From Escherichia coli (GTDB lineage Bacteria > Pseudomonadota > Gammaproteobacteria > Enterobacterales > Enterobacteriaceae), in the NCBI RefSeq assembly GCF_003018255.1, contig NZ_CP027440.1: a stretch of DNA of 64,000 nucleotides. One strand, written 5' to 3'. The translations under genes and the position numbers were made by a program. Position 1 is the first letter of the stretch. Each line of letters opens with the position of its first letter. Shown one piece after another: positions 41,320 through 63,659 of this stretch. The notes beneath the pieces are model-generated. The model searched no databases. It had not been told where the DNA came from and was given only the letters and a program-made list of their open reading frames with translations.

Positions 41320-42364
41320 AAGCTAATAATACATACACAACGGAAAGCGGTGCTAAAGGCACCAACAACCAGCAACGATGAAACCAGGCGCTAAATGCAC
41401 CAATAACACAAACTACGCCGACCCAGATAAGCGGGAACATTGCCAACACCACACCATGTGGCCCGGTGGTGATGAATTCATTAAACCAGGTAGTGAGATA
41501 AATCCCAACGCCATAAAGCACAACCAACAGCATAGGAAATATACTGAAGATACCGAAGCGGCTAAATAAAAGTCTTTTATGCAGGCGCATACAGACCGCG
41601 TAGCCCACAATCCAACGCCGCCAGCGACGCCATTCCTCACGCGGGCTGTTGCATTCCTGTGGGTATACGATGCAGCGATTCGCCTGCCGAATACGATAGC
41701 CGTTTGCCACCAATGTCCAGGTGAGATCAAGGTCTTCGACTTTAGTACGATCAGAGAAACCGAACTTACGCAATACATCAGTACGGAACATCCCGCAGGC
41801 ACCGCTGATAATAAACGGTGCGCCGCCCAGGAGCTGCTGTAGCGTGCGCTTCATAACAATCATCGGCAACTTTACGGTCGCGCGGATGTGCGGTAACAGA
41901 CCCGCGCCTTTCAACGCAGTAGAGGGAATGCCGCCTACGGCATCAGCACCGCGCTCTATTTCTGCCAGCATATAGCCCATTCCGTCTTGATCGGGCGGAA
42001 CATAGGTGTCGGCATCATTTAAAAAAACCTGATCGCAGGTGGCGTAATTGAGGCCATTCATTAGCGCACCACCTTTACCGGTATTTTTTTGCGTGACGGC
42101 AATAAAGCGGTCGCCCCATTTGCGTTTGACTTCCGCCATGACCGCTTCGGTATTGTCCGTGGAGCCGTCGTTAACGCAAATTACCCGGCAGAAATAAGGG
42201 TTACGCAGCAGATTATCCAGTGACTGCGCCAGACACGGGCCTTCGTTATAAGCAGGTATAATGGCGTCAATACAGCCTTTCTTTTGGCTGGGCTTACGCC
42301 TTAACGTACTCAGAAACCATAGCAATATTGCTACGGCCATACATATAAAGATCCAGGTTTTCAT
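41168..42364 (-). CDS. yaiP: family-2 glycosyltransferase, membrane-embedded (putative processive synthase)
   Basis: 398 aa; N-terminal TM helix, GT2 catalytic core (DGSTDNT, DAD, EWRRWRRW resembling QxxRW) and C-terminal TM helices. Confidence 0.85.
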   Translation of the reverse strand: MKTWIFICMAVAILLWFLSTLRRKPSQKKGCIDAIIPAYNEGPCLAQSLDNLLRNPYFCRVICVNDGSTDNTEAVMAEVKRKWGDRFIAVTQKNTGKGGALMNGLNYATCDQVFLNDADTYVPPDQDGMGYMLAEIERGADAVGGIPSTALKGAGLLPHIRATVKLPMIVMKRTLQQLLGGAPFIISGACGMFRTDVLRKFGFSDRTKVEDLDLTWTLVANGYRIRQANRCIVYPQECNSPREEWRRWRRWIVGYAVCMRLHKRLLFSRFGIFSIFPMLLVVLYGVGIYLTTWFNEFITTGPHGVVLAMFPLIWVGVVCVIGAFSAWFHRCWLLVPLAPLSVVYVLLAYAIWIIYGLIAFFTGREPQRDKPTRYSALVEASTAYSHPSVTGTEKLSEA

Positions 42365-42373
42365 GCAATTTGC

Positions 42374-43060
42374 TCAAAGAATCATTTTATGAATAACAAA
42401 ACCTTCACCCAGATCGCTATTGACCTGTTGCCCGCGAAATTGAGCAACTGCACGCAGACGCTCCGGGCGCATATAATCTCGCTGGCTCTGACTTTTATGT
42501 TTTTTTAACGCAGTCAGTTTAAGAGAAAAATATTCTTCTTTCACGGATTCAAAAACCTGAGGCATAAATGAAAGCCAGGTACTTGGTGTTTCATAGCCGA
42601 GAATTTGCGGAATAGCGCGACAGGCAACCATTGAGGCTTGATAGACTGCAAGATGATCCTGATGGCGGTCAGCATCATGCATGGTATATACACGTATAAT
42701 TTCAATATCAGAGGGAATTTGATTTTTTATGATATTTTCCAGGGCAGAAATCATATCATTGAGCTGTAAATGAGCGCGGGTGTCAGCAAAATTAAGATGA
42801 ATAGTTTGGTGGCACCCTAATATCTTTAGAGCGTTGCGTGATTCTTCGTGGCGATCGATTATTCCATCTACGCCAGAATTACCGGTAGTCATCACCACGG
42901 TAGCAATATAAATTCCTTTTTGCGCAAGGCGAGCTAGCGATGCGCCACAGCCTAATTCTATATCGTCAGGATGCGCGCCAATGGCAAGGATACCCTTTCT
43001 TTTATTTGCCGAAGAAAGGATCGCTGAATCTAAAACCTTATCCACTTTATGACACTCCAT
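42374..43060 (-). CDS. yaiS: LmbE/PIG-L-family N-acetylglucosaminyl deacetylase
   Basis: 228 aa; AHPDDIE and HxDH motifs; 9-bp gap to yaiP. Confidence 0.85.
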   Translation of the reverse strand: MECHKVDKVLDSAILSSANKRKGILAIGAHPDDIELGCGASLARLAQKGIYIATVVMTTGNSGVDGIIDRHEESRNALKILGCHQTIHLNFADTRAHLQLNDMISALENIIKNQIPSDIEIIRVYTMHDADRHQDHLAVYQASMVACRAIPQILGYETPSTWLSFMPQVFESVKEEYFSLKLTALKKHKSQSQRDYMRPERLRAVAQFRGQQVNSDLGEGFVIHKMIL

Positions 43061-43651
43061 TTTATTTATTATACTACAAGCACAACGACGCCCGCAGAGA
43101 CGTAACCTCTGACGCAGACAGATGCTAATTTTTAAGTGTTAAAAATAGCTGATAGCTGAAAAACAAGGGGCTGCCAGGTACGGGGATAAGACTGTATAAT
43201 CTTTATGTAGTTCATATGTTAAGTGTTTGTGTGTTTGGTTTGTATGGTTATTTTGTTTTATATATTGTATTTAAATGTGATTTAGTTTGTCAATTAATTG
43301 CATATTAAAAATATGTTCTATGCACAAATATGGGTTATATACATTATGTGAATGTATTATGTGGTTGATTGAGAATGATACAGTTATATATGCAATGTGA
43401 ATATAATGGTTTCATTATATGTATTGCTGTTAATAAAATAAAAGACATTATAATCTGCTTGTTTATGCATTAATAAAATGAAGTGCAGTAACTTACTGAA
43501 TTGTCAGAGTGGGTGTAATTGCATATTTAATCTTTCCTTTGCCACTTTTTCGCTAAGAATAAAATCATCTGTGCGATAACAACTAATTCTTTTAATGAAT
43601 GTTTTTATTCCTGAATACTGCTCCCATAACAAGACAGGGGAGCAGACAATC

Positions 43652-44614
43652 ATGGCAATTTCATCGCGTAACACACTTCTTGCCGCACTGGCATTCATCG
43701 CTTTTCAGGCACAGGCGGTGAACGTCACTGTGGCGTATCAAACTTCAGCCGAACCGGCGAAAGTGGCTCAGGCCGACAACACCTTTGCTAAAGAGAGCGG
43801 GGCGAGCGTTGACTGGCGTAAGTTTGACAGCGGAGCCAGCATCGTGCGGGCGCTGGCTTCTGGCGACGTGCAAATCGGTAACCTCGGTTCCAGCCCATTA
43901 GCGGTGGCAGCCAGCCAACAGGTGCCGATTGAAGTCTTCTTACTGGCGTCAAAACTGGGTAACTCCGAAGCGCTGGTGGTGAAGAAAACTATCAGCAAAC
44001 CGGAAGATCTGATTGGCAAGCGCATCGCCGTACCGTTTATCTCCACCACCCACTACAGCCTGCTGGCGGCGCTGAAACACTGGGGTATTAAACCTGGGCA
44101 AGTGGAGATTGTGAACCTGCAGCCGCCCGCAATTATCGCCGCCTGGCAGCGGGGAGATATTGATGGTGCTTATGTCTGGGCACCGGCGGTTAACGCGCTG
44201 GAAAAAGACGGCAAGGTGCTGACCGATTCTGAACAGGTCGGGCAGTGGGGCGCGCCGACGCTGGACGTCTGGGTCGTGCGGAAAGATTTTGCCGAGAAAC
44301 ATCCTGAGGTCGTGAAAGCGTTCGCTAAAAGCGCCATCGATGCTCAGCAACCGTACATTGCTAACCCAGACGCGTGGCTGAAACAGCCGGAAAACATCAG
44401 CAAACTGGCGCGGTTAAGCGGCGTGCCTGAAGGTGACGTTCCGGGGCTGGTGAAGGGGAATACCTATCTGACGCCGCAGCAGCAAACGGCAGAACTGACC
44501 GGACCGGTGAACAAAGCGATCATCGACACCGCGCAGTTTTTGAAAGAGCAGGGCAAAGTCCCCGCCGTGGCGAATGATTACAGCCAGTACGTTACCTCGC
44601 GCTTCGTGCAATAA
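43652..44614 (+). CDS. tauA: taurine ABC transporter periplasmic binding protein
   Basis: 320 aa from ATG 43652 (MAISSRNTLLAALAF, signal peptide); track ORF starts 19 codons upstream. Confidence 0.92.
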   Translation: MAISSRNTLLAALAFIAFQAQAVNVTVAYQTSAEPAKVAQADNTFAKESGASVDWRKFDSGASIVRALASGDVQIGNLGSSPLAVAASQQVPIEVFLLASKLGNSEALVVKKTISKPEDLIGKRIAVPFISTTHYSLLAALKHWGIKPGQVEIVNLQPPAIIAAWQRGDIDGAYVWAPAVNALEKDGKVLTDSEQVGQWGAPTLDVWVVRKDFAEKHPEVVKAFAKSAIDAQQPYIANPDAWLKQPENISKLARLSGVPEGDVPGLVKGNTYLTPQQQTAELTGPVNKAIIDTAQFLKEQGKVPAVANDYSQYVTSRFVQ

Positions 44615-48080: not shown

Positions 48081-48606
48081 GGTCTGCCTGATGTTTGTGG
48101 AATCGAGGAGCATAGTATACCTGAAGCAGGCTGGGTGTGTTTTACGAAAGTTGTCGCGATGTTGACAAAAAGAGAATGAAAAAGAGGTCAGGACATCTTT
48201 GTAATAGAAATAGCAATAATTTCATATTCACTGAAAATATTTTTTAATTTTTATTTATAGCCATAGATTATTGTTTTTGGGGATTTGGTGACGTTTTCAA
48301 AAAGTGAATAACTTAAAGTTCATTGCTTATTGATACATTATTTGTCTGTTTTGGTTGTTTTATATTTTCATGGTCTATGTTTTAAAATTAACGCTTTCGT
48401 TAACGTATTGAAATATTGTGTTTTTGTTATTTCTTTCTTTGTGTGTGTTCACGTGCTTTATATATGTCCGCAATCGGACTTAGGGGAAAGAATAATTGAA
48501 CCATTCCTCTATAACGCCGCATAATCGTAAACGCGAAACATAATATGTTTTCTATGCATTGATAATTGATGGATCAACTTATTACGTCCCTGAGGAGGGA
48601 TGACAA

Positions 48607-58236: not shown

Positions 58237-58698
58237 CTTAAAAACCTATCCCGTCTAACACAAAGTGCATACATTACCACGACAAAACGGGGGATTCGCG
58301 GCCTTCTGACAGAATGTTGCAATCTTCTGCTGACAAAGCGTGCAACGTACTGGTGAAGAAAGTGCGTTATCTCAATGATGTGCGCAAGATCACAAAAATG
58401 ATGAACGGGAAGCTAATTTATTCCTGGCTTGTATGGCCATGCAGTGAGTTTTTTTCTCTTAATTATAAGTTAACGAAGAGAATATATTTCATAACTTTTA
58501 TTTATAATAAAGGTTGATAATTAAAAGCCTATATTTTGTGTGGGTAATTATTAAAATAAGAGAAACGTTTCGCTGGTAATCAAACAAAAAATATTTGCGC
58601 AAAGTATTTCCCTTGTCATAAAAATAATACTTCCAGACACTATGAAGTTGTGAAACATAATGTTAACTTCTCCATACTTTGGATAAGGAAATACAGAC

Positions 58699-58959
58699 AT
58701 GAAAAATCTCATTGCTGAGTTGTTATTTAAGCTTGCCCAAAAAGAAGAAGAGTCGAAAGAACTGTGCGCGCAGGTAGAAGCTTTGGAGATTATCGTCACT
58801 GCAATGCTTCGCAATATGGCGCAAAATGACCAACAGAGGTTGATTGATCAGGTAGAGGGGGCGCTGTACGAGGTAAAGCCCGATGCCAGCATTCCTGACG
58901 ACGATACGGAGCTGCTGCGCAATTATGTAAAGAAGTTATTGAAGCATCCTCGTCAGTAA
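58699..58959 (+). CDS. iraP: anti-adaptor protein for RpoS degradation
   Basis: 86 aa ([22 protein letters not shown]...). Confidence 0.9.
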
Positions 58960-63075: not shown

Positions 63076-63534
63076 ATGACAATTTGGGTGGATGCCGACG
63101 CGTGTCCCAATGTAATTAAAGAGATTTTGTATCGCGCGGCGGAACGTATGCAGATGCCGCTGGTACTGGTAGCAAACCAGAGTTTACGCGTGCCGCCATC
63201 GCGATTTATTCGTACGCTGCGCGTCGCGGCAGGTTTCGACGTTGCCGATAACGAAATTGTCCGGCAGTGTGAAGCGGGCGATTTGGTGATCACCGCAGAT
63301 ATACCTCTGGCTGCTGAAGCCATCGAGAAAGGCGCGGCGGCGCTTAATCCTCGCGGCGAACGTTACACGCCAGCGACCATTCGTGAGCGCCTGACGATGC
63401 GCGATTTTATGGATACCTTACGTGCCAGTGGGATCCAGACCGGCGGACCAGATAGTCTTTCACAACGTGACCGCCAGGCCTTTGCCGCGGAGCTGGAGAA
63501 GTGGTGGCTGGAAGTGCAACGTAGTCGTGGCTAA
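63076..63534 (+). CDS. yaiI: UPF0178 family protein
   Basis: 152 aa from ATG 63076 ([12 protein letters not shown]). Confidence 0.88.
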
Positions 63535-63611
63535 ATGTAATTTATTATTTACACTTCATTCTTGAATATTTATTGGTATAGTAAGGGATGTATTGATATT
63601 TTCACCTTAAG

Positions 63612-63659
63612 TGGAATTTTTTCTTTACAATCGAAATTGTACTAGTTTGATGGTATGAT
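63612..63659 (+). promoter_or_regulatory. aroL promoter/operator region: TyrR box TGGAAT-N6-TTTACA (63612-63629), TrpR-like GTACTAGTT (63639-63647), -10 TATGAT (63654-63659)
   Basis: Motifs seen in sequence; aroL is known to be controlled by TyrR and TrpR. Confidence 0.65.

Follow-up and report, generated by a model that had tools for sequence, protein, structure and literature searches.

The AT-rich yaiS-tauA spacer of Escherichia coli: a probable H-NS-bound cassette border adjoining a separate tauA promoter

The tauABCD operon is regulated by Cbl and CysB, and in Escherichia coli K-12 its promoter is induced by sulfate starvation. A Cbl footprint reportedly covers positions -112 to -68 at tauA. 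The Cbl/CysB-dependent K-12 promoter consists of two boxes above a weak -35/-10 with a divergent gene upstream, and the same layout was found at the locus described here. A second described system is the promoter island. Panyukov and Ozoline (2013) list island 383994_309, yaiS(-)/tauA(+), among 78 promoter islands of K-12, where it is marked "A", that is, H-NS-bound in all of the compiled ChIP studies (Grainger, Kahramanoglou, Oshima), and where the genes beside it were called foreign by three methods (PMC3661553, Table 1). It is through this secondary compilation that the H-NS occupancy of the K-12 island is known here. Shimada et al. (2014) found an RpoD-holoenzyme genomic-SELEX site in the yaiS<>tauA spacer that overlaps an H-NS site, and predicted TTGACA-18-TACAAT in the direction of yaiS in K-12 (PMC3946193). 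Shimada et al. (2017) reported an RpoS-holoenzyme peak at 383868 in the K-12 spacer (PMC5493296). The binding of H-NS and of the sigma70 and sigmaS holoenzymes was thus taken from the literature and refers to the K-12 allele, for the holoenzymes in vitro. What we describe below has in this sense been catalogued before, as an H-NS-bound promoter island that borders a xenogeneic cassette.

We analysed the orthologous spacer in another E. coli strain, within a stretch of 64,000 nucleotides (the window); over the spacer its sequence matches strain 2014C-3338 at 100% identity. The yaiS reading frame occupies 42374..43060 on the minus strand with its ATG at 43060; the start annotated in K-12 RefSeq is a GTG equivalent to 43045. 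It encodes a PIG-L deacetylase and is followed on the same strand by yaiP, yaiX (an acetyltransferase gene) and yaiO. The tauABCD genes lie on the plus strand and the ATG of tauA is at 43652. The spacer has a GC content of 30.8% compared to 52% in the whole window, and between 43200 and 43500 the GC content is 18–27%. The 300 nt with the lowest GC of the entire 64 kb were located at 43195-43494 (23.3%). TpA density is 0.143 in the AT-rich core versus 0.044 in the window. Among the genes, yaiS has a GC content of 42.5% and tauABCD 55–59%. The original prediction of an AT-rich divergent spacer between yaiS and tauA, carrying the regulatory DNA of both units, was borne out, as were its gene identities and coordinates. 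The features that were located are collected in Table 1.

Table 1. Features located in the yaiS-tauA spacer (positions in the window)
Feature	Position	Strand	Sequence, basis or remark
Divergent intergenic spacer between yaiS and tauA	43061..43651		591 bp, GC 30.8%
Putative untranslated yaiS leader of ~200 nt	43061..43257	-	Inferred from the promoter position
Proximal perfect -10 TATAAT with a poor -35, possibly a second yaiS promoter	43068..43073	-	Invariant in the alleles
AT-rich core, ortholog of K-12 island 383994_309	43199..43497		Alignment of K-12 384770-385078
Conserved core: UP-like A/T stretch, candidate yaiS promoter and first ~50 transcribed nt	43205..43312	-	Conservation across alleles
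77-nt C-free T/G-rich run	43214..43290	+	A/C-rich on the yaiS-sense strand; longest C-free run in 64 kb
Candidate sigma70 promoter of yaiS(PXO)	43264..43293	-	-35 TTGACA 43293..43288, 18-nt spacer, -10 TACAAT 43269..43264
Upstream activator box of tauA, presumed Cbl site	43532..43561	+	CTTTCCTTTGCCACTTTTTCGCTAAGAATA; cross-genus consensus CTAACCATTGCCGnTTTTTTTCTAAAAACG
Further conserved block upstream of tauA that overlaps the -35 region	43583..43601	+	CTAATTCTTTTAATGAATG; consensus TTTTAATTCCTTTATCAAA
Invariant block GAATACTG, containing the presumed -10 of tauA, AATACT (43614-43619)	43613..43620	+	Cross-genus alignment
Shine-Dalgarno sequence of tauA, GGGGAG	43637..43642	+	Sequence, alignment

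To place the K-12 island on the window we used an offset between U00096.2 and U00096.3 that we take to be +776; only with this value does island 383994_309 fall within the annotated K-12 spacer. The island mapped in this way coincides with the GC minimum, which had been located independently, and its GC content is 23.7% in this allele and 24.6% in K-12. The core thus shares with the K-12 promoter island the locus, the position, the length class of ~300 bp and a similarly low GC content. Promoter islands associate with horizontally acquired genes, and this core likewise adjoins a predicted foreign cassette. The strain differs from K-12 in that it carries the other of two spacer haplogroups. The density of promoter-like sites in the 300-nt core was at the 97.7th percentile of the window, as judged by a simple hexamer scan, a crude replacement of the formal PlatProm criterion of the K-12 islands. 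In the spacer 3 promoter-like sites were counted and 3.4 were expected from shuffles, so that there was no enrichment beyond base composition. A scan of the spacer for intrinsic terminators and promoters gave counts equal to those of shuffles, and Rfam at a permissive threshold returned no credible family match, the sole match being a chance snoRNA inside yaiS.

The spacer resembles the targets of xenogeneic silencing by H-NS in being AT-rich, TpA-rich and situated at the border of a cassette. It differs from H-NS-silenced foreign DNA in that the cassette genes are only mildly AT-rich (42–50% GC) and the extreme bias does not extend beyond the spacer. Control by H-NS had been predicted for this region, and the published ChIP compilation and the genomic SELEX data for the orthologous K-12 spacer support it (PMC3661553, PMC3946193). 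By orthology and composition we infer that H-NS probably occupies the spacer and silences the cassette in this strain as well. The binding would most likely occur because the core is AT-rich and not because it is bent.

The most conspicuous part of the spacer is its T/G-rich run. The segment 43210-43300 consists of 51 T, 19 G, 19 A and 2 C, and 25 of its 89 overlapping triplets are TGT, TTG or GTT. Among the 127,820 91-nt windows of the two strands, for which the mean is 4.1 (sd 2.8), this count is the highest, and when the entire spacer was shuffled it was reached in only 0.05% of cases. When the 91 nt of the segment itself were shuffled, 17.7 ± 3.8 such triplets were obtained (p about 0.045). 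The triplet excess was thus largely reproduced by shuffling, and we concluded that the pattern is almost entirely a skew in strand composition, with T and G on the plus strand and A and C on the yaiS-sense strand. The C-free run is followed in length by one of 41 nt as the runner-up in the window. On the minus strand, 43282..43205 contains 17 C and a single G, the highest C/G ratio of all 78-nt windows on either strand, and the second-ranked window, 43409..43332, lies inside the spacer as well. Tandem Repeats Finder detected no array in 43210-43300 and reported only two copies of ATAGCTG at 43145; a search for direct-repeat families in the segment was also negative. Of the T/G-rich short repeats that the original prediction had described, the richness in T/G triplets was therefore confirmed, even as a maximum of the window, but neither a tandem array nor a repeat family was found.

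Read on the strand of yaiS, the same run contains the best promoter match of the region. The candidate sigma70 promoter agrees with the consensus at 11 of 12 positions, and both hexamers are unchanged in all of the aligned alleles and in E. fergusonii. They are identical to those predicted by Shimada et al. (2014) for K-12. From its position the transcription start of yaiS is predicted near 43257, and the first ~50 nt of the predicted transcript begin AACAAAAUAACCAUACAAACCAAACACACAAACACUUAACAUAUGA. The fold of the putative leader was as stable as that of shuffled sequences (z = 0.09), and none of its 56 predicted pairs showed a compensatory change. A long-range pairing was predicted between the C/A-rich leader and the start region of yaiS, which involves invariant columns only. 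An open reading frame of 27 codons on the minus strand of the leader was rejected, as its frame is broken in K-12 (alignment judged by eye). Closer to yaiS, the RpoS-holoenzyme SELEX peak at K-12 position 383868 corresponds, at the low resolution of the chip, to about 43073 in the window, near the proximal TATAAT.

The spacer was found at a coverage of at least 80% in 4,236 of 5,426 complete E. coli genomes and falls into two haplogroups, one with an identity of at least 95% to the present allele in about 1,550 genomes and one with 80–90% in 3,251 genomes, K-12 included. The present allele is 85.5% identical to that of K-12 overall and 72–91% per 100 nt. Within this variable region the 108-nt conserved core is 91.7% identical to the majority K-12-type allele, and in UTI89 it is 99% identical to the present one. 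The flanks reach 76.9% (43400-43507) and about 84% (43095-43202), and in the latter the match spans only 69% of the segment. The core is the best-conserved distal segment in a comparison of about 4,230 genomes. In an alignment of six alleles that included E. whittamii it was nearly invariant, with most of the T/G run unchanged. In E. fergusonii 102 nt of the core are 88% identical, and the remainder of the 667-nt spacer gave no blastn-short match. Because the run is conserved across the haplogroups, E. whittamii and E. fergusonii with the promoter intact, we regard it as the conserved core of the regulatory DNA of yaiS, formed by an A/T-rich upstream stretch, a predicted promoter and the initial ~50 nt of a putative leader.

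On the other side of the spacer, the 190 nt preceding tauA were aligned for about 20 of the 80 species compared below and for the window, K-12 and O157:H7, giving 23 sequences that represent about a dozen genera. Homology across genera reached ~120 nt 5' of the tauA ATG, and beyond about 43530 the lineages were unrelated. The ACTG within GAATACTG was invariant in all 23 sequences, and it is exactly at this block that the identity between the O157:H7-type and the K-12-type sequences starts. With the presumed -10 in this block, transcription of tauA would start near 43626. Upstream of the -10, the yaiS-linked tauA promoter, including its K-12 version, was 53% identical to the Enterobacteriaceae consensus, whereas the tauA promoters of O157:H7, E. 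albertii, Citrobacter and Klebsiella were 75–89% identical to it. The upstream activator box is presumably the Cbl site. The conserved tauA promoter, as delimited by the alignment, appears to be confined to about 43532-43651, the last ~120 nt of the spacer. Compared with the Cbl/CysB promoter model of K-12, the module is thus limited to this part and lies outside the T/G-rich stretch. The promoter of tauABCD, described as regulated by sulfate starvation, had been expected in this region; a tauA module is indeed present in the spacer, but the T/G stretch is more than 230 nt away from it and has no evident link to tauA or to sulfur control.

The genes upstream of tauA and the GC content of the spacer were compared at the tauA loci of 80 species. 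E. whittamii is the only one of them in which yaiS precedes tauA and the spacer is low in GC (minimum 200-nt GC 0.20), and the minima at the remaining loci were 0.30–0.53. In 33 of the 80 species the gene upstream of tauA is an O157-type response-regulator gene, in 31 of these together with a sensor-kinase gene and in 29 also with uhpC-like genes. This set includes Citrobacter, Klebsiella, Enterobacter, Raoultella and Leclercia, and the arrangement is likewise that of the GTDB representative of E. coli and of O157:H7. In E. albertii frmR abuts tauA, and frmR was also found in Escherichia sp. E1V33. In Citrobacter sp. A316 the four-gene cassette yaiS-yaiP-yaiX-yaiO adjoins a cluster for type II secretion, and in Yersinia enterocolitica its surroundings are different again. 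The cassette of E. fergusonii lies beside tauA with lacZ on the opposite side. In every one of these contexts the DNA upstream of yaiS was AT-rich, with a minimum 200-nt GC of 0.215–0.23. Homology to the 108-nt core upstream of yaiS was absent in Yersinia and Citrobacter and was found in Escherichia only. The comparison indicates that the AT-rich DNA travels with the yaiS cassette and not with tauA. Since the cassette occurs in differing genomic contexts and is always AT-rich upstream, yaiS-yaiP-yaiX-yaiO is best described as a module for polysaccharide modification that is horizontally mobile and has an AT-rich 5' border. DNA of this kind is a known target of H-NS.

We consider the best explanation, with a probability of about 0.75, to be that two unrelated regulatory regions are joined at about 43530, namely the edge of an H-NS-bound island and a tauA promoter. 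The part proximal to tauA, 43532-43651, would be an activator-dependent promoter of tauABCD, controlled by the LysR-type regulator Cbl with CysB, and would be the only part that bears on sulfate starvation. The DNA upstream of about 43530 would belong to the yaiS-yaiP-yaiX-yaiO cassette. H-NS most likely coats 43199-43497, where RNA polymerase could bind as well. Silencing of the cassette would be the expected result, and the tauA promoter may lie within the reach of H-NS as well. Within this arrangement the T/G run, read on the strand of yaiS, would provide a near-consensus sigma70 promoter and the beginning of a long, unstructured, G-poor and C/A-rich leader.

An addition to this explanation is that the C/A-rich leader serves as a loading (rut) site of Rho, so that transcription escaping H-NS would terminate before yaiS and the cassette would be silenced by H-NS and Rho together. 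The extreme excess of C over G in 43282..43205, at the top of the 64 kb, with the second-best window also in the spacer, speaks for such a site, as do the ~200-nt leader, in which neither a conserved ORF nor structure beyond that of shuffles was found, and the preservation of the C/A-rich part in three Escherichia species. Rho prefers YC dimers, however; C makes up only about 22% of the leader sequence in question and is found, by eye, mostly in AC dimers. In addition, the 3'-end data in the supplements of Adams 2021 list no Rho-dependent end close to yaiS or tauA. We hold the addition to be unlikely. Somewhat less probable still is a wider proposal, in which the T/G run has been under selection as part of the cassette in Escherichia, its near-consensus promoter drives transcription into the conserved leader, this leader acts as a Rho entry site or a platform for a factor, silencing is exerted by H-NS and Rho, and the tauA promoter has been replaced in addition.

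It could also be argued that the spacer contains nothing specific and is decaying AT-rich junction DNA left by the insertion of the island, in which case the conservation of the T/G run would reflect the history of recombination. The spacer and yaiS indeed form a divergence hot spot of 1.3 kb (72–94% identity to K-12 versus 96–99% in yaiP and tauA), and the locus has been rearranged repeatedly, by an IS1 insertion, an IS1-linked deletion in BL21, an IS2 in yaiX of K-12 and a truncation of yaiS in K-12. The promoter-like matches, too, are as frequent as composition predicts. Against decay stands the 108-nt core, which is kept at 88% in E. fergusonii where its flanks cannot be aligned, and the 11/12 promoter match, which is invariant in three species. 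We regard this reading as doubtful, to about the same degree as the wider Rho proposal.

The original prediction had further held the repetitive DNA to be probably curved and under the control of H-NS or IHF; on this view the T/G repeats would make curved DNA that recruits either protein and couples the two divergent promoters architecturally. The binding of H-NS to the K-12 spacer and the very AT- and TpA-rich composition of the region agree with this view. Intrinsic curvature and phased A-tracts are classical but not obligatory features of H-NS-bound DNA. Curvature was calculated with the wedge model of Bolshoy and Trifonov, which returned 24.4 degrees per turn for a control with phased A-tracts and 0 for a homopolymer. 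For 43200-43300 values of 3.7–7.8 degrees per turn were obtained; in the window the mean is 6.8 and the 95th percentile 14.1. The end-to-end ratios of windows of 60, 120 and 200 nt starting at 43210 fell between the 73rd and the 90th percentile, on a scale whose higher values denote straighter DNA. No AA/TT periodicity at 9.5–11.5 nt exceeded that of shuffles, and A-tracts were not phased. A moderately curved spot at 43120-43139, which favours the curvature reading to some extent, comes close to the 95th percentile with a predicted 13.6 degrees per turn, and the nearest strongly curved one lies inside yaiS at about 42764. The IHF core consensus WATCAANNNNTTR had 7 matches in the window and none in 43061-43651. 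A 10-mer, TCGATAAATT, reported as a high-affinity nucleation motif of H-NS, matched once in the spacer with 2 mismatches, at 43290-43299, overlapping the -35; with 80 matches against 61 expected window-wide, the motif does not discriminate. The T/G stretch is thus of average curvature or straighter, and neither the predicted bending nor the control by IHF was supported. With the tandem array missing as well, architectural coupling through curved DNA appears improbable.

A small hydrophobic protein read from the plus strand of the T/G run (43216-43308, MLSVCVFGLYGYFVLYIVFKCDLVCQLIAY), such as a membrane peptide or a type-I-toxin-like product, is in our view very improbable: the frame is open in 6 of 6 alleles (30–48 codons), its T-rich codons give a hydrophobic peptide and a TATAAT precedes it at 43195-43200 in this allele, but 7 of the 8 variable codons are nonsynonymous and 1 is synonymous, the C-terminus varies in length, a Shine-Dalgarno sequence is absent, the TATAAT is missing from K-12, the MG1655 annotation is empty there although verified small proteins are annotated (nearby ykiC), and an open frame of 30 codons has a chance of ~10% per frame as estimated from the local base composition.

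The joining of a probably H-NS-bound cassette border to a separate tauA promoter adds little as a discovery. What is added to the catalogued island is the identity of the T/G run, the boundary at about 43530 and the evolutionary origin of the AT-rich block. The tauA promoter of the K-12 type is atypical in comparison with that of O157:H7 and of other enterobacteria, and caution is needed when models of Cbl and CysB sites are generalised from K-12. If the proposed replacement of the tauA promoter were true, the event by which the cassette was acquired would have replaced this promoter above its -10, and the Cbl-dependent promoter of K-12 would be a derived or imported variant.

A 1.3-kb hot spot of divergence separating two E. 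coli haplogroups, the window type and the K-12 type, comprises yaiS and the yaiS-tauA spacer (42300-43600); identity there is 72-94% per 100 nt. On either side of it, yaiP and tauA are 96-99% identical between the haplogroups. The E. whittamii yaiS/spacer allele has variants in common with both.

In the window the PIG-L reading frame of yaiS is intact, and the annotations of strains PKF4 and MIN9 likewise give an intact gene. PGAP labels yaiS of the identical strain 2014C-3338 a C-terminally incomplete pseudogene despite the intact reading frame. The K-12 YaiS is a truncated form of 185 aa, whose C-terminus is 38 residues shorter. The ykiC reading frame, likewise intact in the window, lies wholly within the 3' end of full-length yaiS in antisense orientation; in K-12, with its truncated yaiS, the overlap is just 21 nt. 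Approximately one third of the YkiC residues differ between the window and K-12. The ykiC product is a small protein that has been verified in K-12.

Two elements close to the yaiS start were found in the spacer. The proximal TATAAT showed no variation in any allele aligned, and a SELEX peak of the K-12 RpoS holoenzyme (383868; PMC5493296, low chip resolution) maps to approximately its position. Judged from the sequence, transcription starting at this hexamer would leave GGAG as the Shine-Dalgarno for the GTG start given by RefSeq. The inverted repeat further upstream was kept, apart from one varying loop base, in E. whittamii and every E. coli allele examined; it may represent a small hairpin in the leader or a palindrome bound by a protein.

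Positions of the features in the window.
Feature	Coordinates	Strand	Remarks
yaiS	42374-43060	-	PIG-L ORF, intact, 223/228 codons
ykiC ORF	42389-42508	+	39 codons, intact
Perfect TATAAT, poor -35	43068-43073	-	8 nt 5' of yaiS ATG
Inverted repeat CAGAG-N7-CTCTG	43095-43111		35-50 nt 5' of yaiS ATG
AT-rich stretch	48166-48465		hemB/ehaB spacer
AT-rich stretch	58449-58748		upstream of iraP
AT-rich stretch	63532-63631		approx. yaiI/aroL spacer

A scan of the window revealed three further stretches of 22-27% GC with a high density of promoter-like sequences. An H-NS site has been marked in the yaiI/aroL spacer (PMC3946193). The strongest curvature near the spacer, 21.6 degrees per turn as predicted by a wedge model, was located at approx. 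42764, in the yaiS coding region rather than the spacer; it belongs to the 12 highest curvature peaks in the window.

Insertion elements were observed at several places in the locus. IS2 is inserted in yaiX in K-12, and one strain matched in the spacer search (H23) carries IS1 within the yaiS-tauA spacer. In BL21-AI (L005 3246-4106) IS1 directly adjoins tauA; yaiX, yaiP, yaiS and the distal spacer are deleted, and just 106 nt remain 5' of tauA (corresponding to 43546-43651 of the window). The deletion end lies within the conserved upstream tauA box, presumed to be a Cbl box.

Upstream of the -10 element (43532-43612), the yaiS-linked tauA promoter, as seen in the window and in K-12, shows just 53% identity to the Enterobacteriaceae consensus, whereas the same segment reaches 75-89% in O157:H7, E. 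albertii, Citrobacter, Klebsiella and Enterobacter. Between the O157:H7 and K-12 loci, 100% identity starts exactly at AATACT (43614), and both have the same TauA protein accession. This pattern indicates a sharp recombination breakpoint within the tauA promoter.
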